DNA of 64,000 nucleotides from Candidatus Omnitrophota bacterium (GTDB lineage: Bacteria > Omnitrophota > Gorgyraeia > JAFGHF01): NCBI GenBank assembly GCA_020341815.1, contig CP070837.1, positions 1,172,575 through 1,236,574 of the forward strand, written 5' to 3'. Shown piece after piece: positions 27,001-48,000 of the stretch. Position numbers and translations under genes: made by a program. How positions within the stretch are numbered: position 1 is the first letter of the stretch; every line of letters starts with the position of its first letter. The notes beneath the pieces are model-generated. The model ran no database searches, had not been told where the DNA came from, and saw only the letters and a list, made by a program, of their open reading frames with translations.

Positions 27001-30000
27001 ACATAGCGGAGACATTGAAAATGTATTGTCAGATGAGCGGGTAAGCGCGAAGAGAAAAGATATTTTGGCGACTCTTGAAGCAGAGGGGTTATCTTTAGAT
27101 GAGTTAGAGGAATTACAGGCTAAGATTAACGGCCGCAACGAAGCCGAGGCAGAGTTACTAAAGGGCATAACGGATGCGGAAAAGAAAACCGAGCTTGAAT
27201 ACCTTATCAGCCAGAGAAATGCGCAGGAACAGAGCCTGCTAAAGCTTTACAGAGAGGATGCTGATGCAAGAATAGAAGATATCGGGCAGAGCGCAAACGA
27301 GGCAGATATAGCCATTGTTGGTGAGTTGAAAAATCGCTCAAAGAAATTTAAGGTTATAAACGACAGAAAATATAGCCTCTGGTCTTCAAAGGAGAAAAAA
27401 TTAAAGCAGCAGGAGACTAAGCCTGTAAAATTGTCTTCTTATAAAGGAAGAGATGAGGCGAGAAAGATTTTAGGTGCGAGGTTTGGGCAATTAGGAATAA
27501 CAGCTCAGGAAAAGGCTGAGTTCAAACTCCGCATTGAGAACGAAAAGCGCGCGGAGCGTAAAAAGTGGCTTAAAAATAGATTAGCAAAGGAGGAAAAGGA
27601 AGAGAAAGACAAGTTCCTTAAAGGACTTAAGATTTTCCGCAAGCACAATAATATAAAAGAGACCCGTGAAGATGTGTTTACCGAAGATGATTGGAAAGCG
27701 GCTATCAAAAAGGCCCAAGACAGGCTTGGATTGAAGATAGAGAAATTAGAGTCAGAAGGGGAAATATCAAGATTAGAGGAGCAAATAGAGGCAGAAAGAG
27801 AAAAGAAAGATATTGATAGGGATAAGATAAATGAATTAAAAGATAAGATTAAGGAACATAAAGAGGATATTAAAAAGATACAGAATAAAATCAGCGAAGA
27901 AGCTAAGGCAATTAGAGAACTCAGGAAAGAGTTTGCGGATACCGAAGAAGAGAAAAAGTTAATAGATGAACAGACGCGTCTTGATGATGAGGAAAAGGAA
28001 TACAATGAGAAGCGGGAGCAGATTTTAGAAGAAATAGAGGAATTGGAGCGAAGAGAAGAAGATATAGCTCAGCTTCCTCCAGAGGAGCAGAAAGAATTAA
28101 AATATGAGGCGCAGGCCTTATTTACGGAAATAAAAGAACTTATTCAGCAAAAAGAAAGACTTGATAACGATATAGAGACTTTAAAAGAGAGAAAAAGGAC
28201 TATTATCCAGGGTAAAGAGAATCACCGGGAGCAGATAGAGGAGTTAAGAAACCTTCAAGGGTGGCGCTTGCGGGCCCTATGGCAGGAACTTAAGGAACTG
28301 CGGAATGATTATCCTGAAGAGGCGGTTCGGGCCTTAGCAGATTATTATGGAGCATTGCAGGGAGTGCCGTATAAGAAAAGAATAAAGGCGGCTATCCAGC
28401 TGTTTAATCAGATTAAAGGCATTGACAGCAAAGGGCTAAGCGATGCCACAATAGGTGCATTGATTGAAGAATCAAAGGCTGACTTCCAGCGGGAAGATGC
28501 CCTTACTCTCAAGCGCTATCAGTTAGGCCGGGAGAAGGACGAGCAGAAGAAAGAGCAATTAAGGAAGGAAATAGCTGAATTAGAGCAGAGAGAATTAGAC
28601 AGGAAGACCAAGATAGAGAAGGCTGCCGAGAAGTTTGCCAGAAGAAGAGGGTATAAAAAAGACAGAAAGGATGAGTTTGTAAGCAGATATGAAGATTTAA
28701 TAAGTCAGTTAGAATGGATTAGGGAATATGTAGCGATAGAAAAAGGACGCTATGGCGTTGAGAGTAAGGAATACAAAGAGCTTGATTATATATCAAGGAT
28801 ATTGCCCGAATGTATAGACTTTGCAGAAACGCAATTGGAAAAGACGGAGGCGGAAAAGAGTTTAGCCGTCTTAAAAGAAATGGTAAATGACCCGAAAATT
28901 AGCAGGGAAGTTAGAGAAGGACGAAAGAGCAAAATAAAGAGCTTAGAAAATAGAATCGCATTCTTAAATAAGAGCATAGGAAGAAGTAACTTAGCAGAAG
29001 AGTTAAAAGATTCTCAAGTTCATATTTTAAAAGCAGTTAAAAGCGTAAACGGCTCTTTATATGCAAAGATAAAAGAGCTTTTGGATAATTATCCTAGGTT
29101 AAGGAAGCTTAAGGTCTTAGGCAAAGAGCGGGAATTAGAGCGCACTCAACAAGTGAAAGAGAATATTGAAGATGAGATTTCTCAAGAGGGGGAAAAGATA
29201 CATAACTACTTTATCTCTAAGGAATTAAACAGAGGCGATAAAGATGAAGAGGCCGATAAAGTCTGGAAGCTGCTCGAAGAGTTGAATAAAGGTTATTTAC
29301 TTACAGAAACCAACGAATATCCGGGCGTATTTAACTTAGTGCTTTCTCTGGGAGTGAAGAACTTCCAGAAGGATGTTGGTTTGCCGGTTACAGGGAATTG
29401 GGATAAGACCACTAACGAAAAAGCGCAACAGTTATTAAAAGAAAAAATTGCCGCAAGAGTTTCCTTCTTAAAGAATAAGGAGCTGCCTAGACGTATTCTG
29501 AAAGCAGAGATAGATGCTCAGAAGAAGAAATCCGATAAGACGCTCGCAGAGCTTGAGGAGCTCACAGCTAAGCAGAATGAGTTATCCAAGCTGGAAGCAG
29601 AGATTATACAGGAAGAAGAGGCCCGGCAGAAGGAAAAATTAGAGAAAGAATTGGCCTTACTCAAACCTCAGGCAGGTGTATTAGAAGAGGTAGATAAGAG
29701 GATTAAGGCAATAGAGGAGAGCTTGGCGGTTAAAGAGATAGAGATAAAGATTGCCGAGTTAAAAGCAAAGCAGGCTCAAGCAGAAGCTAAAGACCCACAT
29801 TTAAAGCGAGAAATAGAATTACAGGAAGGCAGAAAGAGGCACTTGGAAGAGGAATTCAGGCTGGCCAAAGAAGAAGAAAAAGACAGGAAGGTAATGCTTA
29901 ATGCAAGGCAGCAGAAACAGCTTTATATAGACCGCAATGAATGGAATATTAAGAAGAAGGTTTTGGATGCCTTTGAGCAGTCTCAAACGGAAACCTTAGC

Positions 30001-33000
30001 CCAAATAAAGACAAAATTGACTAAGAAAGATAAAGATGTTAAGAAGTGGCAGGAGGAGATCTCCTTATGGAAGCTGCAAAACAGGATTAGCCGTGAGGAA
30101 AATAATAAAGAAAATAAACAGGCAAAATTGGAACAAGATGATATTTCAGAACTTAGAAGACTAAAATTAGAGACAGGGATCCGAGAGATTAATTTGAGTT
30201 TAGGCATACTTGAGCCTATAGAGAAACAAAATAGAGGCCTAACCGAAAAGGAAGAAAATTCCTTGCGGGAGAATAAGCAGATTAAGGAATTAAGAGCTCT
30301 TGCCGGGGTGTATGGGGCCTATGATTATAAGTGGACACAGGATAAGCTGACTAATAAAAAGTTACATCTTTTGGCTAAGAAAGCATTCTTAGAATATCTG
30401 AAGAATTATCCCGAAGCGGATATGGAATTGCCCGAAGAAGGATTGATGCCGGATGATTATGACCAGATAGTCGACAGGGGCCTGAGTGCGCAGGCCTTAA
30501 ACAGGCAAATTGAAGAGATAGAAATAGAATTGCAGGAGATTAAGGCAGTCCGTGCTCAAGACAAGCATAACCAGGCCAAAGAAGAAGATAAAGAATCTAC
30601 CCGGATAGCGCTTAATCGGGAAGAAGCGAAGTTAGTAAAGCTGAGGAACAAAAACGATAAAAAGACCTTGAAGAAATTAGAGGCTGTTAGCATGTTATTG
30701 GCCTACTGGAGTGCAGCGCTCTCTAAAGAAAAGAGCCTTGATGAGAAGGAGCGCAACTCTGTATCAGGCGCAGAATTAAAGATTGCCCAGAAGGAAAAAG
30801 AATTGGCCAGAGAAAAAGAGGCCTTAGGCGTGCAGGTATATCTTAGCGAGTTTGAGAAATTCCCTGAAGGCATAAGCATTCCCGAGAAATGGCAAAACGC
30901 AAAAGCAAAGAGCGCAATTGAGATTTATGAAGCTACGCGGCAGATAGGAAAAGTGGAGCTTGAGATAACTAATTTACGAAAGCAGCAGGCGGGTGGGTCG
31001 GGCAAGCTTTTATTATTGGAGACAGAGGAAATTGAGCTGTCTTTGGCCCGAGAGAAACGGATTGATGCAATTATTGCCGATAACCGCAAAGAGCTTTCCG
31101 GAATCGAGGACTTGACTCGCTTACAGGAGAAGATGGAGGAGATATGCAGCAAAGATAATAGAGTGAGGATGCTTACTGTCAGGCTGAACGAAATTATCCC
31201 GGCTCAGAAAAGAATACTTAACCGGCAGGAAGCGCTGAATAAGAATACAGAGCTGTCTGCTATAGAGCGGAAAATAGAGAAGTTGAACATCCTCAAAGAT
31301 AGATTGGACTTGGTGAAATTGGCGCTGGAGAAAGGCATCGACTTTGAAGAAGGACGGCAAAGGGCGCAGATTAAAGATGCCGGGATAAATAATGCCCTTA
31401 AGCAGGCAGGGAAAAATAGAGACAAGAAAGCCCTTTTATCTGCCTTAGAAAGACAGGTGAAAAATGTTGAGATAAAGCTGCAGGAGGAGGCAATTGCCGA
31501 GAAAGAAGAATCGATACAAAAGGAAAAGAATGTAACAAAGAAGAAGGTACTGCGGATTGAAAAGAGGATTCAGGAAATCGACCTAAACTTGTTGCGGGAT
31601 GAAGTAGGCAGGTTTGGCGGGCTTTCCAGACAACAGAAAGACCAGCTAAACGGCCTAAAAGGGCAATTAACGGCCTTAAAGCAAATCCTTGAGCGCAGCA
31701 GGGAATATGAGCTCATCGGGGAAGAGAAATCCAGATGGCTGTTACAAGAAAAGGTAATTAATTTTATAGAGTTTTACGGCAGAGAGGCATGGGAGAATTA
31801 TCAGAAGGAATATAGAATGGAAGATATTCCCCTAATTGCAAAGAGCGCCCGGGATTTAAAGAAAATTATGGATAATAACGAGGAACGTATCCGCTCCTTA
31901 TTATTAAAAATAGAGCAGGCAATTATATCTTTGGAAATAGAGAATTGCGAGAAGAAGGAATTGCTGAAGAAGCAGCCTAAAAATGAGGAAGCTAAATCAA
32001 TAATTAAGATTAACGAACAGAGCATAATAATTCTTCCCAAGGCAAAAGAGCTCTTTACCGGAGATAAACACACAAAGAAAAAGACTCTCAGAGAGATAAA
32101 CACAAGGATGGCGGACTTACAGAATGATCTGCAGAGGTTAAAGAAGCTGCTCAGTGGAGAAAAAGGAGTAAAAGATATATCACGCAATAAACAGCAAGAG
32201 CCGGTTCATTATGAGCGCTTAGGAGATAAGATAGCAAATTTAGATAAGAGGGCCGGGCAGTTGAATGAAGATGAAGAGGCCTTGCTGGAGGTTCTGGAGG
32301 AATTAGGGGCCAGGGTTGTAGAACAAAGACAGGTGCTTACGCTTTGGACAGTAGAGGATGCGGTAGAGGCAAGTCAGGCCGGAGGGGACGTCGCAGATAA
32401 AGTAATAGCGGAGATTACTGGTTTAAGTGCTGAGTTTGTCCGGTATGTCTATAACGTTTTGACACAGATGTGGAGTGAAGAGAAGGCCAGGGAATATTCG
32501 CTTAGTCAGATAATGAATAAGGCGCAGTTAAAGAACGCCCTGCTAAAGGAATATGCAGGGCTCTCTCAGCACGATGTGGCCAGAGAGATTGTGCAGATTT
32601 TCTGGACGGCATTCGAATTGGACGATTATTACGAGCATTCTGCTCAAGCAGAAGAAGAATTTAAGAAGGTCCTTACAATTAATCCTGCGGGAGAGGTCTT
32701 CAAGGAGCGCTTATCGGCGCACAGCACCGGAAAGCTTAGGAATTCGGCTGTAGAGATAGCCGAAGAAGTCGATAATCAAGACGGCTTTAGAATGCTTCAT
32801 CCTCAGGCGCATATAAAAGTTAGAGGTACAGAGGGCGCCGGGCCCCGGTGGAGCCTTAGCTTTGCTTCTTTTGCCGCTACACCGGGTAAAATCTGGCGCT
32901 CCATTAAGGGATTGTTCGGTAAGGAGCAGGATGTCTTTATTTCTCCTGAAGCGTGGCAGGCGTATCAGGAAGAGGTGCTATCTCTTACTGAGAGCGCTTT

Positions 33001-36000
33001 TGAGAAGGAAGAGCCTTTACTTTCGGTATGGATAGAATTGGCCTTAGCCGAGAGAGCAGTACATTTGGCTCAAGGTGAAGGTTTTCTCCAGAGGAAGGCG
33101 GCCGAAAGGCGTTTAGCGCAGGTTCGCCGGATAGCGCAGAGCAAAGAGTTCTTTAATCTGCGTATGACTGTATGGCCCCAGACAGGACTGGATTTTCAGG
33201 GCAAAGATGAACAGGAGTCATTAGAGGAAATAATCAGGCATATCCCCTTATTTGCAGAAGAGGTTTATAAGCAGGTAATCGAGCGCATAGTAGCTGCTAC
33301 AAAGGACATACCCTCTTTAGGAAAGAATATAAAGAAAGAATATAATAAGACCTCTTTATCTTTAGGCGAGAGGCTTAGCATTGGCGCTGACTTAGGGTTA
33401 AATATTGTTTCCGGAAAGACAAAGAGGCTCTTTTCTCTCTTTGCCGAGGCCCTGATATTCCAGCAGGATAGCCAGGAGACGAAAGAGTTGATAGACAGGC
33501 TTAACCGGAACTACGAATTAAAGCAAAAGGAGCTTCGCGGAACGATAACCGAAATAATAAACGGCTTGAAAGCAAAATATGCGCAGGTCGATGAGGCAGA
33601 TTTTGATAATAGGGTAAAAATATACTGGCAGCTCTGCGCCTTTGAGCAGTTGGCGCGAATATTTGGCGAGATGGAAGAAGGATGGGCGAATGATAAGGCT
33701 GCCTTGCCTTCGGCTGGCAATGACAGCGCTCAGGCAGGCGAAGCAGAGGTTATTACCAGCGTCTCATCGCAAAGGGAAGAAAAGTTCTCTCAGGAATTGC
33801 TTAGCGATTTGGTTGGGGCCTTCAACAGGAATGCCCAGGACACCCGGAAGAATAAACAGGAACAGGTGCGTTTAGAGAAAGAAAGGCTTAGCAGTGATGA
33901 GCCCTTGAGTGAAGTAATTAAAGCAGCTGAATCTCTATCAAGCAAAAAAGAAGATATCTTCCAGACAGCAAAACAGGCAATAGTAGCTAATGAGCATAGC
34001 GAAAATACAGAGCAGGATTATTTAACGGCCTGGGAGTGGTTAGCCAGACAGGTGGTGAATTCTCAAGACAGGCTGGAGAGCTTTAATCCGGACACTGCCT
34101 TAGCCGGGACAAATATAAATGAAGTCACAAAGCAGAAAATAACAGGGTATTGGCAAAGACAAATTAACCGAAAGATAGACGCATATTTAGGAAGGCTGGA
34201 TAGAGAAGGATATTTATCTGAACGAGAGAGCAGCCTGCTGATGACATTAGCCGAAAAAACGGGCCAGGCAGAAAGAATAAGAGAGGCCAAAGCCGCCTTA
34301 GGCAAGATTGATAAGGGTAAAAAGGAAGACGCAGACAGGCTTGAAGAGCTATACAAAAAGACAAAAGAGGTCTTGGAGAATCCGCAGAATACGCCGGAAG
34401 ATATCAATGAGCAGGAGGCGGAATTCAAGGCGCATTTCCAGCGCTGCCGCGATAGAGGCATAGTGACTATTGAAGAGTGGGGAGAGAAAGGCCTGGAATT
34501 AGAGAAGCTAAGAAAAGACTCTCTTGCTGAACGAGACAAGAAGCAAGGGCAGTGGCGCGATTTTATAGAAAATAAGAAAAAAGAATTGGCTTCGTTGCTC
34601 ACACCCAAGAATAGGGAGAAGTCGGAAAAAACTCAACAAAAGATAGAAGCCATAGCCGCAGAGGTTGCTCGGGAAAGAGTTAAATATGCGCCTTATTTCT
34701 CAGGCAAGGCAGAAACAGAGAAGTTATCCTTGGATGCAGTGGAAGTGGAGCTATTGGCGGAAATAATTAATGGGCAGCTGCGTGAGTGGTTTGCGCACAA
34801 TATTCATTCTCCTCCTGCTGCCGTAGCTTTAGACGCAGAGCTCCGCAGAAGAGAAACACCCTCCTTTATTGCCAAGGCCGCAGCAGAGGCGTCAGGAGAC
34901 TTAAAGGAAGCACTGCTAAAAGCAAAGCAGGATGCGGCCCGACGTTTGCAAATAGCGCGCAACGATGAAAAGATAATAGCTCTCTCGGGCGAAGTTATCA
35001 GCCAGGGCTGGCAGATAGAGGCAGGTTGTTTCCTGGCGTTTATCCCCTATGGTAGACTCAGCAAAGACGCCGAGTCCCGTGCGAAATTCCAGCCGGAGCT
35101 GAACAAGGAATATCTTGCCTATCAACAGACAATCACCGACATTACTGAGGTAGATATTATCCTCAGGACCCTCCACGATTACTACAAGCAGAATCCTCAT
35201 CCGGAAGTAAAGAATTTAATCGAAAAATATGAATTGTATAGACACTATCTTGGCATTTCAGCGGTAACCTGCCTTATTCAAATCAAGTGTAACGAAATCC
35301 TGATTGAAAGAGAAGGCAAAAAGGATATAAGCCTTACCGGAGCGCTTAATTTGGCTTATACAATAGTGTCTAATCTCTTGGATTGGGCAACCAATATAGG
35401 CGGAAGGGACGCGCAGAAGGCGCAGCGCTTGAGCGGCGAGCTGCAGGCTTTGATTCCCCGGTTTTACCAGCTTAAACAGGAGACAGAGAGACTATCGAAG
35501 GCTCAGGCAGTCTCTGAGGAAGAGCCCGCCAAAGCCCAGCAGGAGAGCTCAACAAAGAGGATATTTGGAGAAACGGTGGCGTCTTCAAAATATGTGGCTG
35601 TTTCCTCAGACGGGACCATTCTGGCGATGTATGTGAGGACAGGCTCCGACCGCCGTTATCTGGTTTTGAAGAATGTCTACACATCTCTTACCGGTGAGCG
35701 CGGAGCAAGCGCGCTGGAGAAAAGAGAGGGTCTTAATTACGGCGTTACGGTAGAATTACAGCGCAAAGAGATTGATTGGAATGAACTGGATAAAGTCCTT
35801 AGAAGGGATTACGGGCTGCGTTTCTTTGGCAAGAAGTTTATTGCTCTCGATGAAACCGGAGCAGGGCTAAAGGGAATATGGTCTTTGGATGTCCGCAACA
35901 TCCCGGCCGATAGGTGGGACATCGATGATCAAGTTAAAATAGAGAGTATGGTGGGATTGGAAGGACGGCGTCCATTAGCGGAGTTTACAACCAAAGACGG

Positions 36001-39000
36001 CACTAAAATAGATATTACAGGCAGGGTTCCCGTATCTATTATGGTAGATGAACAGGGCAACCCTGTTTACTATGTAGGCCTGGGTATTAGCGAAGAGAAC
36101 TCAGGCTCGGACTTCATAAATGGCCTGCAGATTGACCCCGAAGGAGAGACTGTTTACTACGCAAGCGGCCGGGCCGTGTTTAGCTGGGATAAGCAGAGGA
36201 AATATAATACCAGGATAAATGCCAACTTTACTCAGGATGATAATGTCAGTGTGCACTTAAGCCAGGACCTCACAAAGCAGTGGACCATAGACTTAGGCGG
36301 TAATTGTTACTGGGAGGAGAAAGAGGAACTCTATGACGGCACGGTTAAGGTCACCTGGAATGCGCCTTCAGAGAGTAACAAGAATAAGCTCAGTATTAGC
36401 GCCGGCTATGACTATAGAGAGTCTTTACAGCCCCAGGGGAGAATAGAACATACCTCTCTCACTAACAGTATAGTTATCCGAAATACCGTTCTGGGCATAA
36501 GGCAATTTTCTCTCCAGACAGACTATCAGTTGGAAGAGGAGGAGATTAGTCATAGGGTAAGCATCAATAAGCTCCTGCCCGCCCAGATAAACTGGAGCGG
36601 CACAGCAAAGTTTGATTATTATGGTAATCTGATTTATTCTACTTATGTGGAAAAGAACTTTGACGGCGCTTCTCTGCGCCTTGGAGTGAAAGGCGACAAA
36701 GAGAAAGAGGATGTGCGGCCTAATCTTAGACTGACTCACGGCAACTTTAGCTTAAAGGGAGACTTTAAAGATGAGTATAATTGGGGCGTAGGAATTAATT
36801 ATCGCAATATCGAGCTGGGGAAAGGGTTTGCGGGTACGGCCAGCATCGAAGGAGGAGAGGCGGCAGGACAACCCTGGATAGAGGCCGGGTTTGATGTCTT
36901 TCCTTTATTAGGAAAGTTGCGGCAAGAGAAGTTTAGCCTGCTTCCTCTGGATTTGAAAAACAAAAGACTCAATCTTTCCTCAGGTAACTGGAATACAGTG
37001 GGAGAGGATGCCGCAATTAAACAAGAGACCACAGATTTGCGCCGCCGGATATATGAGCAGCAGGATGAGCTGCAGCGCAGAGGAGAAAAGGTAACTTTAA
37101 ATAAGGAAGATGTAGCGCTATTAAATGAGCTTCGGGATATAGCGGGCAGAGGCTTTGCTCCCAAGGATGTTTTGGCTAACCTTATCGTTAATAAGAAAGT
37201 AGATGCAGACGAGCTCAAAGACCTCTTTAGAGACTGGGCATTTTTAGCAAAGGATACGGAGTTAAAAGACTATTTAGGAGAGAAGATAGATATTCAAAAT
37301 AAAGTGCACCTGGCTGAACTGTTCTTCTGGACAGGGTATCTGCGTCAAAATGGCGAGACAAAGACAAAGGACAGGATTATTGAATTAAACGGGGCCAGAG
37401 AGCAATTAAAAGATTCATTTAAAGAAAGAAAGGGCAGCAAGCAGTTTAACCCGGCCAATGTCAGGGATGCAGAAGAGCTCTGGTTACTGATTGGCCTGGG
37501 CGAAAAATATAGTCAGGACCTGGTTAAAGTGATATTGCGCTATCGCAGTTCCATTGAAAAGATAACCGGCGTCAAGCTGGATATTACTGCTCAAGGGGTA
37601 GTAGATATTTATCTTAACTGGGGAAGTTATCTCCAGCAGGAAGAGCAGAAGATTGAAGGGCAGGGCTTAGATGAAGCGCAGGAGAAAAAGGCCAAACAGG
37701 CCTTGAGCAAGAAGATACGGAATATTGCCGATGCTGAGACTACGCATTTACTTGATAGCGAGGCGCGTAAACAACCTTCGCAAGAGCTTATTGCCCTATT
37801 AGATTACCTGACTAAATTAGGCGTAGACGGGCTAAAGATATTTGCTAAAGTAGACCGCAGCAAGCTTCTTCCTTACGAAATGAAATTGCAGGCGGCAATA
37901 GCGTTATTAGAGGCCAAAGGCAAGGTCAAGAACATACCCCGCTATGTCTTTATATTGGAAGAGCTTTATAATATAGCCCAGGGCAACCTTGTTATCCAAA
38001 ATGACCTTTTCCCTGAAGGATTTGCTGCGGAGGAGGTTTCTGCGGAGCAGGCGACAATCTTTACCGGTTTAACTTATGCGGTGTATAGAGAGGATATCTC
38101 TGCCGACCATATTCAGAATGTTAGTTATCTCTACAGCCAAATTCAGAAACCCCACTATCCAGCCGCATCTGTTTACAATAAACTATTCATAGAATTAAAC
38201 TATTGGACAAAGGTTGGCGAATTCTTAGAGACCAGGAAAGAAGGAGCATTAGAGACAATAGCCGGCCTTTTAGCGGAAGATAGCAACCTTGCCTTTGGCA
38301 AGACCGAACTTACCATTGACCGGGTTCTCTCGGCATTAGGCCTTAATGGCTCCAGGAATAAACCTGTTACCAAACCCAAACAGCAATTACGAAAACAAAA
38401 GGCAGCTAAGGCAATACCGACGCAAGAGAAGAAAAAAGAGGCGGTCATCGCCAGCTTGCGTAGTAACAAAGAGAAAGAATTGCCTCCTCAAAATATGCCT
38501 CTCCATCTATATGAGGAAGCAACGGAGAAGGAGGAGCCCTCATTATTTGCTCAATTCCTCTCCGCAATTAATCCTTTCTCGGCAAGGCTTGCTTATGGGG
38601 ATGAGTTGCGCTTGCCTCAGGTTGCCGTAGAGGGAAGGACTATTCGCGTTAATGGCCGGCCTTACCAGATAAGGGGCCCTAGCTATTTACCGGTTCCTAA
38701 GGGTGAGGATATTAAGAGCTTCTTGTTTGATTATGATACGGTTGTCCGTGATATTGCCTTGATGAGGCAGTTGAATAGCAATACTATTCTCACCTATCCC
38801 ATAGAGGATGAAGGGATTTTGAATGCCTTTGCTGACGCAGGAATAAAGGTTATTATTGATTTTGCCGATTATGGTGATAGATATGTTGATTACATCAATC
38901 AATTTAAAGGCCATCCGGCCATTCTGTTGTGGTGTTTTAATGACCGGGATACTGCTTTAGAGCAGGCAGCGCAAACCGCGCATCAGCTTGACCCTGAGCA

Positions 39001-42000
39001 TCCTGTAGCGGCTATTCACGATGAAATTCCTGCTGCTGATGTTTTGGCAAAATGTCCTTCGGTAGATGTCTGGGGTATGCCTGTGGATTGCTGGGATAAA
39101 CTTCAGGCTACATTTGGTAAGTGGGAGGCAATTTCCGGGAAGCCGATGTTCTTATTCGGGGGAGTGGACTCATTTGATAATAATGCCGGTCAGGAAGACA
39201 GGTCTGCACAGGCAACCGTAGTATCAGATATCTGGAAGCAGGTTGATGGGGCAGGAGATATTTGCTCCGGGATAATCTTCAGAGAATTCAACGATGGATG
39301 GTGGAGGGCCGGTAATAACGATAGTCAGGATAGCGCAGGTTTCTATAACGGCAGCGTCCCTTATGATAGTTTTGATAATGTAGAGTATCGGGGAATTGTC
39401 GATATTGAACGCAATCCCAAGCAGGCTTTTTATACCCTCCAGCAAAATTGGCCCGGAGCCTCCGATGCCTTTATTCCTGTTGAGATAGATGCCCCGGAAA
39501 AAGATGCAGATGGAACTTACCAGATAACCTGGTCCGGTGAAGCCGGTACGAGTTATTATGAAATACAGGAAGCAGCGGATAGCCGTTTTACGGCTAATCG
39601 CAGATACTATTATGCGGAGACTAATCAGTTAGATATCAGCAGGCAAGAGGAAGGGGCTTATTACTATCGCATCCGCACATGGATAGGCGATGTTGCTTCT
39701 GATTGGAGTGAGGTAATATCGGTTGAGGTTGAGTTCTCTAAGGGTAGAGATAAAGACGGAGGATGCTTTATCGATATATTATCTCTTCAAGAAAAAACAG
39801 ATGACAGATTGATTGTATCCCGAATAGAATCGACTAAACAGAAGGCAGAGCAGGCGAAAGAGGAGTTTGCTTCTCTGTGGAGAATTAATCCGCGGGAGGT
39901 TTCTGTAAGGGAGGTCTCCGGGTTGTCTGTGCCAGGGTGTTTAATAGAGGAGCCGGATGGAACAATTACAATGCTTTTACGGCCGAATGCCTTAATCAGC
40001 ACCCTGCGTCATGAGTATCGGGGCGCAACCTTAGGAATTGACCATTCGGATAATAGCAGAATAGACGAGGCGCTGCTTATCCAGCCGGAAAATTCCTTAG
40101 AGTATCTCGAGAAGAACTACCCTGAAGTTTACCAACGCGTGTTCGCAAACATTGAACAGGTGAAAAATGGTAAGACTCTGCCTGTCCTTGACTGGGCAGA
40201 TGAGGAGGATATCTATGAGTATCTTATAGATGATGCCTCATTTAACCGATTCTGGTTTGGCACTACTACCACTCCTACCCCTGAGGGGCCGCAACGGTTT
40301 TGGGTTCTTACAAGAGTAGCGCCTGATATTATGAGAGATTATAAAGATTATAGCGACGATTACGAAAAGATAAATGCCTATTTAGTTGATTTAGGACTGG
40401 TAGAGGGATTAAACACCAAGCTTTTTAATGCGGGAGAAGACGTATTGGGGCAATCCCCTCGTTCCGGGCCTCCTTTCGCCCCTGATTTACTAGATCCGCA
40501 GGAGCCTGACTACGACCCTGACTCCAGCTATAGAAAGGTATACGCCCCGCTTCTTTTCAGCTTTATAAAAACAAAAGGTTACAGCGAAGACAAACTTATT
40601 TCTGCTCTTCCTGAAATAGAGGCGCTCCATGATGAACTGAAAGATAATTCCGATGCAAGAAATTATTTACCCGCATTCTTCTCTTACAAAGAAGATGGCA
40701 TATTTTATCCTGTTTATTATGTTTCAGACATTTCTGCTGCTGCACTTGTTGGCGATACGCCAGAAGCACGCCAAGCACGCCGTTACCTCAACTTCCTTTT
40801 CGACACCGTTTGCGGGTATATGGATTTAAATAATAATGGAATTGTTGACGATGAGGATTATCAATATGAAAAGTTAGCTGAGGATATCGAAGAGAGAGCT
40901 TCATACTGGGTAAGTGACTTTGAGTTGGTTGGATGGCTTAATGCGAATTGCTGGGATGAGATAGATGCCTATCATAACCTTAATGCCACAGGGTTTTTTA
41001 GAGATGCCGATCCTGACAAGGCAGAAGAAATGGAAATAAGAAACCAACATTTAGGCACATTGTATCAGCAGCAGCAGAGGATAGAGGATTCGAAAAATCC
41101 TAAGCGCGAAAAGATATATGTAGTGATACATTACGATGAGAATGGAGTTCAACAGCCGCCGCAGGAGAGAAATGCGAATGAGGAAGGAATAAATGAAGAG
41201 GGAGAACATTATCGTTATGGATGGAGTCGCGAGGCAGTAAAAAATCACCTTGCAAATTGCGCTACATTGCTAGACAGCTGGAGTTATATTTGCGAGTATA
41301 ATCCTACATTAGGAGAGAATTATACAGCTACTCCTTATCAGAGGGCCGTTATAAGCACATGGGAAGAGCCGGTGGATTATGACGGGAAACCTTATGAGAA
41401 AAAGGAATGGGATGAAGAAAATACAAGAGATGTAACTTACTATTTAGGCAGGAAATATGAGAGTTTAGACGGCAATTGGGGAGAGTTAGTTCCGCTTCCT
41501 CGTGAACTCAAGAGTATAGATAACGTAGTAAATGATTTGAATCATATCCATCTCTTAATTACTGAGGCAAGCGTCGGTTTGAAACGATGCTGGGAGATAT
41601 GCCAACCGGGAGTGGTGTTTAGCCTTGAGGATGCTAACTCTCGGGGATTTGTACTTATCCAGATGCTTTTAATGAAAACCGAGTATCGCAAAAAGGGAGA
41701 GGCCGTATGGAGAGATATTGATACAGAAGATGAAATGCGCAAGACTGTTGATTTGAAATATAGCCCCTCTCAAATGGTGGGAGTTATTAATCGCGCCGGC
41801 GAGATTGCCCTTTCTATGGGTGATTTAGAGACCCTTTACGACTTTGATAGAACCACAGAAACAGATATTGCATTTCAGTTGATTTTCTATTTGGAAGAGC
41901 AGATACTCATTCCTGGAGTGCGCGAATATGGCGTGGGGTTGGATTTGAATAGCGGTCAAGAGTTTGGCTTAGAGGATGAGAAGATAAAATTGGTCTTTAC

Positions 42001-45000
42001 CGAGGCCTCGCAGGTAGTTGGGTTTGTGAAGAATCTTTTAGCGGTTAGGCAAAGCCCAAGTTATTCTAACTTATGCGAGTTGTGGGGAATGGAGAGCGAT
42101 GTACCTTATCGTAATGACCAGACCCCTGTGGCTTGGACAAAAGGGCTAGATGGAGATCCTCTATTTGCCAGTATAGTCCTACGCCAATTTACAGAAGATA
42201 TGGCCTGGATGTTGACCCCGCGGCCGGATATGGGCGGCAAGAAATGCTATTATTCCTACAACATAGATAACTTATCTGCCGGATATACCCTGAGGCCATT
42301 GCCGGATGATTTTGATATTGACGACCTGAGCGCCTCTATAGACAGAGAGTGGTATTTAGTGGTTGGATTTAAAGAGGAGTTTCCTGATAAGGATGGGGTT
42401 TTAGATGTGATTACTTCTTATCATCCCGATGCCTCTCCCCAGTATTATGGCGATTGCAAGGTAATAGCAGAGACTGCAGAGACAGAAAAAGGCACAAATC
42501 CAACTGCTTCACTTTTAACCCGGGTAATCATTAGTGAATTGGCTCACCCTTATGAGTTGAGCATAGATAAATACCTGGCAGGATATGTTCCCTCTGAGTA
42601 CTGGCAAGAGACCGATTGGGAGCAGATAAAAGACTTAGTGGTTGAGGATATGCAGAGGATGAAAGAAGTTGTTGCCTTGCCCGGAATAAGAGCTGCATGG
42701 AAAAAGCATTATAAAGGTATTATTGCAGAAGCAGTGTTTGATGCGGAGTTTTGGGGTAACAGCACTCTATCTAATATTCAGGCCAGTAATTCAACTGCGG
42801 ATAATCCAATCTACCTTGCTCAGTCCGCAGCATTCCGCACCACAACCAGTAAATACATCCGTAGTCATGAGTTCAAGATAGACGCACATCTTGCCGAAAA
42901 AGGGCCTGAGGAATGCTGGAAAGAAAAAGATTGGGAAGTGGTTAAGATAACCTTGGTAGAGGACTTATATAGAACACAAGACTTGTTTGCCGTAAACGGG
43001 TTGATAAAAGCCCTCAAGACCAGCGGCTCCCAGCATACGACTATCAGCAATGCCATGGCCGATACCCTCTGGCCTACAGCCGGGGCAACAGTAGAAGACT
43101 CCCAGATCATCGGGCCTAAAGGTATAGCCTTAAGCGAATACGAAGTAACCCGAACCACTGTCAGCGCAAAGGCAAGACAATTCAAGCTGAAGCCCGACCA
43201 CCTCATCGCCGGACAAGACTACACAGCATACTGGCAGGAGATAGGCGCAGACAGAACCAGCACAGAGTGGCAGACATACTTAGCTACAGTGGTGGATGAT
43301 GAATACAGGGTAGGCGACTTATACAAGGTAACAGGTTTAGTCACAGCCCTCAAGACCAGCGGCTCCCAGCATACGACTATCAGCAATGCCATGGCCGATA
43401 CCCTCTGGCCTACAGCCGGGGCAACAGTAGAAGACTCCCAGATCATCGGGCCTAAAGGCACGCTTTTAAGCACCAATGAAGTAACGAGGTTATTCATCAG
43501 CAGAGAGAGTCATCAGTTTAACTTGCAAATAGACGCCTATATAGTAGGAGAGCCGGTATATTGGAAAGAGCGCGGGGCAGATAGAAATAGCAAAGAATGG
43601 CAGGAGGTATTAAATACGATAGTCGAACATAAATACAGACTTGGTCAGGTGTTTGCTATACAAGGTATTATTGATGTCTTCCAAAGATATTATCCGCCGG
43701 CGATGGCTTCGCAATTTGCCGATAGTTTCTGGGGTAATGCACAGCCTTCTAACATCCTTGCCCCTGTTCCGACTGCAAATAATGCAAAGGTCCGTTTTCA
43801 AGATGGAGACAACGAGGTCGAATATTTAACTATGTCGGAATTATTGCGCACCATAGGCGGTGAATATATCAAGCCGCTCTTATTAGACCTGGATTATCAG
43901 CGATATACTGAACTGAAGTTTGAGGCCTCTAAGATAAAAGACCAGTTGGAAAGAGAGATAATGCTGCGGGATGAGCCGGGCTTCTTAACCTTAATGCCCC
44001 GCTGGTATAACTATAACGGCTTAAAGGCGAGTGAAAAATTCTGGGGTGATGCAACAGAGCTTACGATTGAAGGAGAAACGGTATCCGCCAGCAGGCTAAC
44101 CAGGATATTAACCGCTGCTTTAGCCGATGGAGTGTATTCGGATGAACATACCGAAGGCACGCATATAAACCTTACTATTATGGAAGAAGAAAAGATTGAC
44201 CTGGATGCAAATAAAGACACACCCAGAGCAGTAGTTAGGCACATCGGGTTCCAGATAGAGTTGAGGAGCAATAAAGAGGCCTTTGATAATATGGAGGAAT
44301 TGTGGGAACTTGAAGGCGTAGGGTTCTGGGGGACTACTGAAGGATACAAAGGCTTCACCAAATCGGAACTCTTGCGCCAGATTGTCAGTAATGCAGCAGA
44401 GAAGATAGGCGAGGAAAGGGAAGACTTCTTCTTCACGGTAGATGATTATTTAGTTGAACTGAAGAAGGTTGTAGAGCTGAAAACCAAATTGAACAGCCGC
44501 ATACCTCTGTTGCTATTCCTGAAGAAGAGGCCAAGGCTGCGCGCCTCATACAGAGGGGCCCAGGATATACAGTGGCTGTTTGATACGGCAAAACATATTG
44601 GCCCGGAAATAGAAAAGGGCTATCCTAATGTAGATACTTATATAGTAGTGGCAGATAAATGGAGAGTTATCATCTCCAGAGTAGAGCATAGATTGGAAAG
44701 AAGCCTCGTCATTGACCCGGAAAGAGGCAACTTTGGCTACGATATCAGGGGAGGAATTGTTACCCTGCATTATCACGATAGTATTACCGGCAGTATTCCT
44801 GTAGGCTTAGAGCAGGTAAGCGTGGCTTCTTTAAGCGTGAGCCTGGTAGTCAGAGGCTTAACATTAGAAGAAGCAGGCAGGCGCTGGGTTGAAGATAAGG
44901 ATTTCATTCAGCAGGCCAATGAGATTGTGGTTATTTCCGAGCGCAACGATTTAGGCCGGATAAATTATCACGAAGAGATCGGCAGGACAGTTTACTATTA

Positions 45001-48000
45001 CACTCCCGAAGGTAAAAAGGTCGCCCAGGAGGAGCATTATTATGATTTAGCTAGAGGCGGCTTAGTCAGGCAGATAAGAGATAATCTGGAGACTGTTTAC
45101 CGTTATGAAGAGGGTTATGGCTATTACGATTCCCGCAGACAGTTCTATCCTTTTGCCTCTTCAGGCGATATCTATGTGCGTAGCCCCTATACCCATTTAG
45201 CCACCTTTACCAATAGTGAGCCCAACTTAGAAAGAGGCGAATTTACGCAGCAACTTACCTATCTCGCCGGCAATAAACAGGGGCGCACAGCAGAGCAGAT
45301 CTTGAGTGTTGTCAGTGGCGCCAGTGTGCACGTTTATGAAGGAGAATGCCAGACAGGTATAGGCTTAGACTGGGATACAGAGATAAAACACAAATATAAA
45401 GATGGCGTTTTTGAGGTGCTGAGGACGCCTACGCACACTAAGAAGCTTGACCAGTTTGGCAATAGCCTGGATACCTCCGACTTCCACAAGTTTGATGAAG
45501 ATGGGCAGGGAAAAACCATTGTGCTCATCAAAGGTGAAGATAAAGTATTTGGGGTGTATTATGAAGAGACCTATAATGTTACCGGCGGCCTTCTTGTGCA
45601 CAGGATTATGACCGAGAAGTGGGGAAGAGAGCTGATAAGGACAGAACATACCCTAATTCGCGGCACACCGATTATCGTTGGCAACAAGCTTATCCGCAAG
45701 GGTGTAACCTTAGAGGACTTTACTATCGGTGATGGTAAGCACGTGCCCGTAGCCAACGAGCAAGGCCTGATTGAGGCCGAAGGTAAAGACTATTTTGGCA
45801 CAAGGGCTAAGCGCTATTACACCAATTATGCGGCAGTAAAAGAAACAGAATACTTTAATAAGGATGGCGAGTTAATCCTTTGCGTTGGAAACGACCTTAT
45901 TAAAGGAAGGCCCTATGTTGTTGGTTATACAGAAGAAACTGCTCAGGGCGGGACGATTGCCACATTTAAGATTGCTGCCGAAAATATGGTTAATGGGCTT
46001 GTTCATCCTGCTGAAAAAGGATGGCAGAAGGCCAGATTAAGGTTAGACAGTGTTGAAGAGTGGCGCGGCAACTCTTACCGCCAGTATCTTGACTATTTTG
46101 CCGGTGTGAGGAAAAAGGAACTTGTTGATAGCCAGGGTAATACTTTAACTGTTGCCGAGAATGAAACCTTTGAGGCTACAATATTTACCCGCAAGTACGT
46201 GCTCAAGAATGCCCGAGGGACAACCTTGGAAGAGTTTGAGGTGGAAAGTGAGGACATTGAAAACGACTTACCTAAACTCTCAATACTGGCGCTTGAGTCA
46301 AAAGAGGTTTACGAGGTTGACGGCTCTGTTACTACAATTGAGAGCAAGGAATTTAGGGTAGCCCGAATGAAGGGGACGGATTGGCGCAAAAACAGGTTTG
46401 AGCGTTTCTCTAATGGCTTTGGCGGATTAGTTCAGGAGAAGGTATTCGTTGAAAATGGTTCTGAGCCTGTTTTGATAGGCGAAAACCGCGAATTTGCCTT
46501 TGGCCGCTATGCTGTAAAACGGTTGAAGTTGTTGGCGGACGGCACAGTTATGGAATACCTCTCTATTCAATTAGATGGAGAAGGCCTGGCTGTGCAGGAG
46601 GAAGGATATGTTATTGCACAAGGGAGCGAGTTAAAGGGCATCAGAGAATCGGGAAGCCTGCGCTATCGCTGGATAAGATTGATGCTTGATAAGGCAGTTG
46701 ACGGCACAAAACAAAAGCAAATCCTCGATGCCTGCGAGGTAGTTTTGCAGACAACGGACAACGGGCTTATCCCCGGGACAAAAGAGATTCGCCAAAGCAC
46801 AGTAATAAATTCCATAGATGTTATTACCCGTTACAGCAAAACACAGGAAGACCTATCTACCGGCCTGCTTGAATTAGACAGGCAGGGCCGCACTATTTCT
46901 GATGTCAAGATTCTGCTCGGCGCAGATAAAGCCGGTGGGTATATCTGGAAGGAAGTTGAGGAGTATCACCTTTCCTTAGGCGAATTAGAGCAGGAGAATT
47001 GGGAAGAATACGTAACTTATGGTTCTGGAAAAGCAAAGACAACAGAGAAGGTCAATCTGGTAACTAAATATGTGCCGGTCAGAGGCATGGGCTTTATCAA
47101 ATCCAGCAAGACCACCTTTAAATATAAAGGAAAGACCTTAACCTATCGCAGCGCCAAGAATGTATTTGTGGGGGATTTCCCTCTTCTGGATAAAGATGAC
47201 TTAACCAGAAGCGAGGTTAGTTCTCTCGATGCTTATGACGATACCCTCGGCCCATATTCTAAACATACCAGCGAATATCGCGACGATTTCGGCGGATTAA
47301 AGAAATCTGTCTATGAATACAAGAGGGGCCCGGCCGTAACGCACAATACCTTATTCCCGCAGACAGATATTGTTGTGGAGAGCGAGGTAAAAGATATCCT
47401 TGAGAATATGTTACGCTTCAGTTACGCCAGAGAAAAGTCCCCCGAAGGCCTGTCTGTGTTTGAAAATAACCGCAGAACGATGCGGGAAGGCAACTGCGAA
47501 GGCGAGCGCTGGGATGCCTTATACGACCGCTTCGGCGCAGTGTATGAGATAGCTAACAAGATGAACAAGACCGTCTATACGTTCTACAGCGTGGTTGAGA
47601 TCTTAACTAATAAACCTCAAAAATATGGAAAATATGAGCGCGCTATCAGGGGCGTGGGGGATTATGTGGGCTTGAAAGAAACAGGCGCAAGAAAGAGTTT
47701 TGATTTTAGCAACATGAGAATTACCTGGGATGTGCAGAAATACCTGGGAGATACCAAATATTATCTTTATTCCCTTACCCGCATTACCGATTTAGAGACC
47801 GGAAAACGGGAAGAAGAGACCATTGAAAAATACTCGCACACCGTCTTTACTTACGCAAGCCTGGCCGCTGAGCTCTGCAACAGTCCCGACAAATCAGAGG
47901 AATATAGATATTGCAAATCAGGCGGCCAATACGCAAAACTCAAATACACCCTGACCAAGCAGAATGTATATTCGGGAGAAGAAGATGATTGTCGCCAATT

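Follow-up and report, generated by a model that had tools for sequence, protein, structure and literature searches.

A glycosidase-like barrel stripped of its catalytic residues within a giant Omnitrophota reading frame

A (beta/alpha)8 barrel of clan GH-A encoded in the genome of a Candidatus Omnitrophota bacterium, referred to here as copy 1, has lost the catalytic residues of the glycosidase family to which it belongs. This barrel is probably a pseudo-glycosidase serving as a non-hydrolytic module for glycan binding or scaffolding. Since nucleophile, acid/base, supporting residues and one loop are gone, alignment and structural model predict that it is incapable of the double-displacement reaction by which its relatives cleave with retention. 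The window, i.e., the whole stretch of 64,000 nucleotides that was analysed, also holds a second barrel of the same family, called copy 2 (Table 1).

Table 1. Features of the window, with coordinates in nucleotides of the window and residues of the giant protein
Feature	Coordinates	Strand	Description
Giant-gene ORF	2..64000	+	21,333 codons, both ends open; contains all other listed features
Barrel copy 1, clan GH-A (beta/alpha)8	38615..39457	+	aa 12872-13152; catalytic site dismantled
L12930, strand beta2	38789..38791	+	replaces family Arg (93% conserved); aligned to human GUS R382
N12980-D12981, end of beta4	38939..38944	+	replaces family invariant Asn-Glu; Glu is the acid/base, human GUS E451
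In-frame deletion of ~15 residues	38948..38956	+	beta4-alpha4 loop '(Y/F)NYHPEWF..N..NWY' gone; present in every relative
P13027 and D13029, beta6	39080..39088	+	replace family Asn (99%) and Tyr (98%); human GUS N502 and Y504
F13052/G13053 junction, end of beta7	39155..39160	+	nucleophile Glu deleted; 100% in family; human GUS E540
beta8 region and C-terminal loop	39296..39382	+	W13100 and W13101 retained; E to G13099, K to R13102, E to V13127
FN3 domain	39473..39742	+	aa 13158-13247; begins 5 residues past the barrel; single copy in the window
Barrel copy 2	50015..50965	+	aa 16672-16988; divergent paralogue, same family; catalytic residues intact

The frame starting at nucleotide 2 of the forward strand runs without a stop over the entire window, for at least 21,333 codons, and is the sole stop-free run of 250 codons or more in a six-frame scan. 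Because it remains open across all 64 kb, the window is a piece of one giant gene, and copy 1 is one module of this ORF, not a separate secreted glycosidase. A Pfam scan identified methyltransferase (PF08241), PGM/PMM and TPR domains along the protein, with weak NUDIX and PG_binding_1 matches, and most of its length carries no recognisable domain. In a crude hydropathy scan, transmembrane segments occur in clusters, and a stretch of about 10,000 residues free of them (aa ~8080-18210) holds both barrels, which may on this basis lie outside the cytoplasm. The protein is giant, multi-domain and of the Omnitrophota type. With its length of over 21,333 codons, its clustered transmembrane segments and its domain mix, the present ORF agrees with the Archaeovorin-type or 'multi-enzyme metabolic cluster' Omnitrophota giants described in the accessible parts of two reports (West-Roberts et al. 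2023, bioRxiv 10.1101/2023.11.21.568195; a 2026 preprint, 10.64898/2026.06.07.730766), the shared domains being methyltransferase PF08241, PGM/PMM, TPR, weak NUDIX and glycosyl hydrolase. Neither the barrel family nor catalytically dead GH modules are described in those parts. Homology between this ORF and other giant ORFs was not found outside the barrels, which suggests a rapid turnover of modules among them.

The sequence-only reading had proposed a GH2-like TIM barrel of clan GH-A with altered catalytic residues, followed by an FN3 module. The peptides on which it relied, DIALMRQLNSNTILTYPIED (from nt 38750), IKVIIDFAD (38843), HPAILLWCFNDRD (38912) and GIIFREFNDGWW (39269), all lie in a single frame between nt 38750 and 39304; the start that it gave, nt 38640, is one base off this frame, and translation from there meets stops. 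Copy 1 matches the Pfam Glyco_hydro_2_C profile at 31.5 bits (E 1.3e-7), above the gathering cut-off of 21. Its AlphaFold2 model (pLDDT 91.8, pTM 0.90) shows eight beta/alpha units, and a Foldseek search of the PDB with this model returned GH2 glucuronidases and galacturonidase together with GH157 at the top (E about 1e-14, TM 0.65-0.71). The glycosidase-family match and the (beta/alpha)8 fold, on which that reading had staked the assignment, were thus both found, and the barrel holds as GH2_C-like. Among 1.84 billion representative proteins, 1982 matches were found at E <= 1e-3, including 91 at E <= 1e-30, and a family HMM trained without the window sequence recovered the barrel, over the residues given in Table 1, at 275 bits (E 3e-86). 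The likeness to glycosidase barrels is far beyond chance.

The nearest structural neighbours are GH2 enzymes (PF02836; human GUS 1bhg, E. coli GUS 3k46), at 15-20% identity, and the active-site positions of the family align one-to-one with those of human GUS. Membership of GH2 proper was rejected, as the N-terminal sugar-binding and Ig domains of GH2 were not detected upstream by Pfam; copy 1 falls instead in a distinct, unnamed family. It is 40-47% identical to stand-alone enzymes of this family, and the homology clearly extends along the entire barrel. Neither the window's own peptides nor an orthologue of copy 1 turned up in the genome and metagenome sets that were searched, 47% being the best identity found. 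The GC3 of the copy 1 segment is typical for the giant gene. The terminal branch of copy 1 measures 0.31, against a 90th percentile of 0.27 for the family; a branch of this length would also be expected from neutral decay after inactivation.

The family is widespread and related to GH2, GH157, GH158 and GH72. NCBIfam has no model for it, and a search for a characterised member found none. Typical members are marine Flavobacteriaceae proteins of about 391 aa with a T9SS C-terminal domain (P0001-P0121); other forms carry a CBM6 (P0127) or are modules of giant ORFs, mostly in Omnitrophota MAGs and also in MAGs labelled Planctomycetales. Its consensus motifs are 'HPAILMWExGNE(Y/W)NY', 'NVYR', 'SE(T/A/Y)GADSY', 'DEWWKAG' and 'NEE(Y/W)WG'. 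Among solved structures, the family profile matches best the endo-beta-1,3-glucanases of GH158 (PDB 9oro/6pal; 1.9e-23) and GH157 (9fz9; 3.9e-16, full length) and the beta-1,3-glucanosyltransferases of GH72 (1e-11), a remote, profile-level likeness; the window sequence alone fails to match these structures. In GH158, whose acid/base is Glu143 and whose nucleophile is Glu229, the barrel precedes a beta-sandwich (PMC13195107). Copy 1 shares this order of domains; however, the sandwich of GH158 is 8-stranded and Ig-like, whereas an FN3 domain follows copy 1, which lacks both catalytic Glu. The secreted Bacteroidota enzymes of the family are located in laminarin-type loci where GH16 and GH17 genes adjoin the stand-alone family genes, as in Gaetbulibacter, whose gene order is GH16, an unannotated 1150-aa ORF, GH17, the family barrel, an MFS transporter and GH17. 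Beta-1,3-glucan of the laminarin type may therefore be retained as a substrate lead for the family.

The catalytic site was examined by comparison with 252 other family domains, i.e., 169 from representative proteins and species genomes and 83 from metagenomes. The nucleophile Glu is present in all 252, including about 18 barrels from other giant ORFs, and the acid/base Glu in about 98%. Conservation in the set of 169 reaches 100% for E211 and N124 and 98% for E125 and Y187, and all 83 metagenome domains display NE and the Tyr together with the nucleophile E. Copy 1 is unique in this collection as it lacks the nucleophile, has altered acid/base, Tyr, Arg and Asn positions and has had a loop removed, so that helix alpha4 starts straight after beta4 in its model. 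The acid/base 'NE' had been read earlier as 'ND', and the HMMER alignment gives the same residues; MAFFT shifts the column by one residue and places R12982 under the Glu, and under either alignment the site contains no Glu. The nucleophile Glu, which the same reading could not locate, has been deleted.

Six active-site positions were mapped onto human beta-glucuronidase (R382, N450, E451, N502, Y504 and E540), the roles of E451, Y504 and E540 being described (PMC3834196). Five of the six are altered or deleted in copy 1, compared with seven of 38 other conserved positions (Fisher p = 0.0037). The losses are targeted and not the product of general decay because 32 of the 44 positions conserved at >=85% in the family are retained, the losses being concentrated in the active site. 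H12971, W12977 and W13100/W13101, which line the GH-A cleft, are still present, and every change is in-frame. Loss of the catalytic residues is thus shown. The choice left earlier between a divergent hydrolase and a dead barrel is tilted toward the latter, and the hydrolase is disfavoured, by the five lost sites and the invariance of the nucleophile among relatives.

The FN3 domain expected straight after the barrel is indeed there, at the profile level. It is homologous to 394 repeat stretches across 56 proteins, the consensus of which scores 26 bits on Pfam fn3 (cut-off 25), and the repeat-bearing P0122 scores 122.6 bits. The profile of the module (A5) matches fibronectin as well as titin FN3, the latter at 3.9e-21. 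An FN3 of this type directly after a family barrel was seen in a single relative, P0180. Located 3,500 residues downstream of copy 1 in the same protein, copy 2 gave no match in a Pfam search and reaches 79.8 bits on the family HMM (E 9e-27). It is the reciprocal of copy 1, with a divergent scaffold and a retained catalytic set, namely N16789-E16790 (acid/base), N16849, Y16851 and E16886 (nucleophile), and apparently works as an enzyme.

Among the other explanations considered, it is somewhat unlikely that copy 1 is an inert relic, drifting and kept in frame only since the giant ORF must stay open, which would make it filler or spacer. Such drift would agree with the long terminal branch, with the lack of any orthologue conserving the dead state in the collections searched, with the module turnover suggested by the lack of homology to other giant ORFs outside the barrels, and with a protein mostly devoid of recognisable domains. 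Yet the conserved positions retained, the clustering of losses in the active site, the high pLDDT of the model, the clean in-frame nature of both deletions and a family score of 275 bits, compared with 80 for the intact copy 2, all speak against it. It is very doubtful that copy 1 remains an enzyme, rewired for instance to use D12981 as acid/base and D13029 (beta6) or D13056 (beta7) as nucleophile or base. Such an arrangement exists in none of the 252 relatives, and the exchange of Arg for Leu and of Asn for Pro, E13099G, E13127V and the loss of the beta4 loop come together here; moreover, from general barrel geometry, an Asp, shorter than the Glu or Tyr replaced, would leave the anomeric carbon out of reach. 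This outweighs the carboxylate preserved at beta4 by Asn-Asp, the carboxylate added by Tyr to Asp beside the emptied nucleophile site, the invariance of D13056 in the family and the weak activity reported for alpha-Klotho in spite of a missing Glu (PMC11696049).

An artefact of assembly or sequencing in a normal hydrolase gene is scarcely credible. Assembly of giant genes is difficult (West-Roberts 2023), but at least 11 independent differences would have to be explained, including six substitutions in mapped or conserved positions and deletions of one and 15 codons, all in-frame in a stop-free 64-kb ORF where random errors would produce frameshifts and stops. Pseudo-glycosidases include the chitinase-like lectins. 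Another case is alpha-Klotho, whose KL1 and KL2 barrels (GH1-like, clan GH-A) keep the fold, lack a catalytic Glu, serve a non-catalytic use and stand two to a polypeptide (PMC11696049). The parallel is partial, as a single Glu is missing from each barrel of Klotho whereas copy 1 lacks both plus Tyr, Arg and Asn, and as Klotho is an animal co-receptor whereas copy 1 sits in a bacterial giant protein with an intact, distant partner barrel. A protein-protein scaffold of this kind, docking part of the giant protein, copy 2 or a surface protein of a prey, is improbable: GH-A pseudo-glycosidase barrels do act as receptor scaffolds elsewhere (PMC11696049) and removal of the beta4 loop with changes of charge has reshaped the cleft face, but the His and Trp lining the cleft persist, and neither an identifiable partner nor, in other giants, a co-varying module was found.

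The pseudo-glycosidase reading, as favoured here, would have copy 1 descend from an active, uncharacterised glycosidase family found in laminarin-type clusters and in many giant genes. In copy 1, the catalytic machinery has been removed and the fold preserved, Asp having replaced the nucleophile-supporting Tyr. Copy 1 would then most likely act as a lectin-like glycan-binding cleft or as a rigid scaffold, both glycan binding itself and the cell-surface role proposed by the sequence-only reading being conjectural, and the FN3 domain may be a spacer holding it outward. The hydrolytic work would fall to copy 2, which is divergent and retains the full catalytic set.

A single stop-free frame on the + strand covers the whole 64,000-nt window from nt 2 onward, amounting to 21,333 codons with both ends open, and the remaining frames of the window hold no stop-free run of at least 250 codons. 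The barrel picked out by the sequence-only reading does not form a gene of its own but is one module of this giant gene. GC and AT skews are both positive over nearly the whole window. The other domains encoded in the frame are listed below; among them, the PG_binding_1 and transglutaminase core matches, if real, would fit a cell-wall-directed role. Candidate transmembrane (TM) helices, taken as strongly hydrophobic 19-residue segments in a simple Kyte-Doolittle hydropathy scan, number 39 and fall into three clusters, leaving a stretch of ~10,000 residues (aa ~8080-18210) devoid of candidate helices by the same scan, in which both family barrels and the FN3 domain reside.

Features of the giant reading frame (residues of the window ORF and nucleotides of the window)
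Feature	Residues (aa)	Nucleotides	Strand	Evidence or remark
Class I SAM-dependent methyltransferase (Methyltransf_11)	494-584	1481-1753	+	Pfam E 1.3e-13; local GC3 only 0.30
Candidate TM cluster 1	1703-2480	5108-7441	+	Kyte-Doolittle scan
PGM/PMM domains I, III, IV	3413-4005	10238-12016	+	PGM_PMM_I E 1.4e-22
Candidate TM cluster 2	5726-8078	17177-24235	+	Kyte-Doolittle scan
Transglutaminase core, sub-threshold	6223-6275	18668-18826	+	17.2 bits vs cut-off 23
TPR array 1	~7708-7813	23123-23440	+	Pfam
PG_binding_1, sub-threshold	9764-9805	29291-29416	+	21.6 bits vs cut-off 23
Barrel copy 1	12872-13152	38615-39457	+	Clan GH-A (beta/alpha)8 barrel, predicted
FN3 domain	13158-13247	39473-39742	+	Directly after copy 1; single copy in window
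Barrel copy 2	16672-16988	50015-50965	+	Family HMM 79.8 bits, E 9e-27
Candidate TM cluster 3	18213-20451	54638-61354	+	Kyte-Doolittle scan
TM-rich region matching P0166 residues 2557-3525	18674-19745	56021-59236	+	23% identity, E 8e-26
TPR array 2	~20664-20743	61991-62230	+	Pfam
NUDIX, sub-threshold	~20927-20960	62780-62881	+	Pfam; after TPR array 2

Giant proteins named 'Archaeovorin' or 'multi-enzyme metabolic cluster' are described from Omnitrophota in two reports (10.1101/2023.11.21.568195; 10.64898/2026.06.07.730766). The window ORF resembles the Archaeovorin type in being a single ORF of at least 7,000 aa that mixes enzyme domains (methyltransferase, glycoside hydrolase, sugar-metabolism and TPR domains, with NUDIX sub-threshold). 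Compared with the further giant ORFs retrieved, the window ORF showed no detectable homology beyond the barrels, with one exception. This is the TM-rich region downstream of copy 2, which matches part of P0166, a protein of 4523 aa whose own family barrel lies ~2,000 residues upstream of the matching region; it is the only homology between giants found beyond the barrels.

The four peptide blocks on which the GH2-like assignment had been founded all occur in one frame, at nt 38750, 38843, 38912 and 39269. The extent proposed for barrel plus FN3 (38640-39740) was accurate, its start being one base out of frame; to recover the true frame, the start moves back by one base or forward by two. Pfam Glyco_hydro_2_C (PF02836) recognizes copy 1 with 31.5 bits against a gathering threshold of 21 (E 1.3e-7), a whole-sequence score gathered over two stretches, the best of which covers profile positions 1-76 of 302; a weaker Pfam match to GH72 is also obtained. 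An AlphaFold2 model based on 43 diverse sequences reached a pLDDT of 91.8 and a pTM of 0.90, with eight alternating strand/helix units. A model from 17 near-identical Flavobacteriaceae sequences gave a pLDDT of 49.5 and was not used for the fold search. Foldseek comparison of the retained model with the PDB returned GH2 beta-glucuronidases, a beta-galacturonidase and the GH157 endo-beta-1,3-glucanase LaGH157 (E ~1e-14 to 1e-13, probability 1.00, TM-scores 0.65-0.71). The predicted fold of copy 1 is thus that of a clan GH-A (beta/alpha)8 barrel, in agreement with the TIM barrel proposed earlier.

The label 'GH2-like' holds for the clan and the GH2_C match and fails for GH2 proper, which was rejected on architecture. 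In GH2 enzymes a sugar-binding jelly-roll and Ig-like domains precede the barrel (PMC3834196). Neither GH2 N-terminal domain is found before copy 1, since Pfam at E <= 1 shows only GH2_C and GH72 over aa 10001-14999; before the barrel lies a charged linker. When 1.84 billion representative proteins were searched exhaustively, 1982 matches at E <= 1e-3 were obtained, which separate into two independent families, one covering the barrel (query ~2-283, best identities 45-47%) and the other a repeat (~285-378). An HMM of the family from which the window was left out recovers copy 1 with 275.3 bits (E 3e-86) over model positions 7-314 of 321. No NCBIfam model covers this family, GH2 equivalogs scoring 15.7 bits against cut-offs of at least 544 bits. 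Against solved structures, the family profile matches best GH158 (9oro, 1.9e-23, a partial coverage of 133 positions), followed by human beta-glucuronidase (GUS, 2.7e-19), GH157 (9fz9, 3.9e-16, full length) and GH72 (1e-11); the window sequence alone finds only 1bhg (E 0.004). On these profile affinities, the family is treated as an unnamed GH-A family standing between GH2, GH157, GH158 and GH72.

The catalytic residues of the family could be placed by reference to human GUS, in which E451 is the acid/base, Y504 an essential Tyr and E540 the nucleophile (PMC3834196); the SEQRES offset is 20 for both catalytic Glu positions. In clan GH-A, an acid/base Glu within an 'NE' motif closes strand beta4 at its C-terminal end, and a nucleophile Glu takes the corresponding place on beta7. 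Copy 1 has neither, under HMMER and MAFFT alignments alike; the nucleophile Glu is found in all of the 252 relatives examined. The sequence-only reading had noted altered catalytic residues at these very sites, and the alignments bear it out.

Catalytic positions of the family and their state in copy 1 (HMM numbering; conservation from 169 family domains of representative proteins and species genomes)
Family position	Human GUS	Copy 1	Conservation
R65	R382	L12930	93%
N124	N450	N12980, kept	100%
E125, acid/base	E451	D12981 (HMMER) or R12982 (MAFFT)	98%
N185	N502	P13027	99%
Y187, essential Tyr	Y504	D13029	98%
E211, nucleophile	E540	Deleted between F13052 and G13053	100%

Of the whole catalytic set (R65, N124-E125, N185, Y187, E211), only N124 is thus retained. 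Three further conserved residues are altered (E to G13099, K to R13102 and E to V13127), and a beta4-alpha4 loop of ~15 residues common to every relative has been excised. In other family members, deviations are limited to two or three GNN/GND variants at the acid/base position, and a further 83 metagenome domains all keep the NE, the nucleophile Glu and the Tyr. Elsewhere the barrel has been better preserved: 32 of 44 positions conserved at >=85% are kept, including H12971, W12977 and W13100/W13101. Losses affect 5 of the 6 mapped active-site positions versus 7 of 38 others (Fisher p = 0.0037), which shows, as far as alignment can tell, a loss targeted to the catalytic set. As fold and family signature are retained while the catalytic residues are gone, copy 1 is concluded to be a putative pseudo-glycosidase, for which the retaining Glu/Glu mechanism of the family would be out of reach. 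In a neighbor-joining (NJ) tree, it falls within a 'GNE(Y/F)NYHPEW' subfamily, adjoining Bacteroidota enzymes and giant-gene fragments. Recent horizontal acquisition was considered and finds no compositional support, the GC3 of copy 1 (0.434) being the median of the gene.

Copy 2, to which Pfam gives no match, shows the reciprocal pattern. Its scaffold has diverged, with 14 of the 44 conserved positions lost (e.g., H to W16780), whereas the catalytic residues are kept, namely N16789-E16790, N16849, Y16851, the nucleophile E16886, E16952, K16955 and E16983. It is therefore probably a catalytically competent paralogue. With a GC3 of 0.536, it ranks within the highest 3% for the gene. The two copies cannot be taken for recent tandem duplicates, as they occupy different parts of the family tree, copy 2 being the most divergent sequence. 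Two family barrels within one polypeptide also occur in other long ORFs, such as those of the loci L001 (GCA_024231025.1, JAAEQW010000102.1, 1-17050) and L079; in P0185, the barrels (aa 1954-2248 and 3216-3536) are both catalytically intact. Paired barrels are hence recurrent, the dead/alive pair being seen in the window alone.

An FN3-like module had been proposed immediately after the barrel, and the sequence found there corresponds to it. Taken alone, it yields no Pfam match at E <= 1. It is homologous to 394 repeat stretches in 56 proteins, with up to 19 copies each (best domain E 1e-17), and the repeat consensus passes Pfam fn3 (PF00041) with 26 bits for a cut-off of 25, while P0122, one of the repeat-bearing proteins, reaches 122.6 bits. 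A profile including the window copy matches titin FN3 (3.9e-21), as well as fibronectin and a consensus FN3 (FN3con); it also matches the N-terminal domain of a beta-1,3-glucanase structure. These comparisons show the module to be a true FN3 domain by profile homology. Of 183 other family barrels, that of P0180 alone is directly followed by the same type of FN3; P0180 is a 2020-aa ORF filling its whole contig and bearing intact catalytic residues.

The closest matches in a word-indexed protein database are marine Flavobacteriaceae proteins of ~391 aa composed of a signal peptide, the barrel and a T9SS C-terminal sorting domain, and a profile search of that database found the same tight Flavobacteriaceae cluster only, among the 120 matches listed. 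Other family members carry a CBM6. Scanning one genome per species extended the family to 428 relatives from Bacteroidota, Kiritimatiellota, Myxococcota, MAGs labelled Planctomycetales and many Candidatus Omnitrophota MAGs. In ~18 of the 80 loci kept, mostly from Omnitrophota, the barrel lies inside an ORF running off both ends of the ~20-kb locus, which denotes a giant gene, and nine more barrels were found in giant ORFs among JGI metagenome loci. Neither the window's own peptides nor an orthologue were found in the species genomes or the JGI metagenomes, where alignment-based relatives reach at most 41% identity. Four loci with the barrel in both-ends-open ORFs (L024, L038, L064 and L077) come from MAGs labelled 'uncultured Planctomycetales', L038 having GND for GNE; either giant genes with the family barrel are not confined to Omnitrophota, or the MAGs in question have been mis-binned or mis-labelled.

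A lead on the substrate comes from Gaetbulibacter aestuarii, in which the gene order (L003, 4099-13468) is GH16, an unannotated 1150-aa ORF, GH17, the family barrel, an MFS sugar transporter and GH17, with the same ORF layout in Robertkochia (L012). Such a gene order is typical of loci for the utilisation of laminarin (beta-1,3-glucan). Because of this laminarin-type cluster and of the GH157/GH158/GH72 affinities, beta-1,3-glucan is the best guess for the family substrate; no characterised member of the family was found.

Most likely, the dead barrel would work non-catalytically, either as a glycan-binding, lectin-like cleft or as a rigid scaffold, the FN3 domain serving as a spacer that would hold it out on that side of the membrane where the active barrel also lies. 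The arrangement can be likened to pairs of a CBM and a catalytic domain, and the dead barrel to pseudo-glycosidases such as alpha-Klotho (PMC11696049). A more specific proposal, possible at best, is that dead barrel and FN3 together 'grip' a polysaccharide, beta-glucan-like or from a cell envelope, with high affinity, recognizing prey surfaces, while the distant live barrel cuts. In a more radical variant, the dead barrel would be active via a relocated Asp/Asp dyad, which, if true, would give clan GH-A a catalytic arrangement of a new type; such a rewired Asp-based enzyme is unlikely, as the supporting residues were lost simultaneously.

That copy 1 is instead an inert, decaying relic is rather unlikely, with two points in its favour: its terminal branch is long (0.31, beyond the family 90th percentile of 0.27 in the NJ tree), and no orthologue was found on which selection could be tested. 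A role as a protein-protein scaffold appears improbable. An artefactual origin of the catalytic losses is very unlikely, since all changes in copy 1 are in frame and at least 11 independent in-frame differences would have to be explained. The earlier description and its interpretation are supported, and of the two options that it had left, a divergent hydrolase or a dead barrel, the former suffers from the loss of 5 of 6 active-site positions and the latter is favoured on the residues aligned.

Pseudo-glycosidases as such are already known, and so are glycoside hydrolase domains within the giant proteins of Omnitrophota. What is new is a GH-A family that has no name and in which a characterised member was not found, that is found repeatedly as a giant-gene module, and of which copy 1 is the sole catalytically stripped copy among ~250 domains examined, sharing its polypeptide with an intact paralogue. 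The family is widespread, with good contextual links to beta-1,3-glucan metabolism. Giant proteins of the Omnitrophota type are proposed to attach to and degrade prey cell envelopes, and roles have been assigned to almost none of their modules. Here, one polypeptide offers a pair made of a barrel expected to bind without cutting and a paralogue expected to cut. If the dead barrel does not bind, it would amount to nothing more unusual than the decay of one domain in a mosaic gene that evolves fast. If it does bind glycan, clan GH-A would gain a bacterial example of a lectin module derived from an enzyme, and there would be a hint at the surface recognised by the giant protein. Should the grip proposal be true, the dead/live pair would be a built-in equivalent of a CBM and its catalytic domain, with a lectin evolved from the enzyme itself, and would represent a new way of prey-surface recognition for predatory or episymbiotic Omnitrophota.
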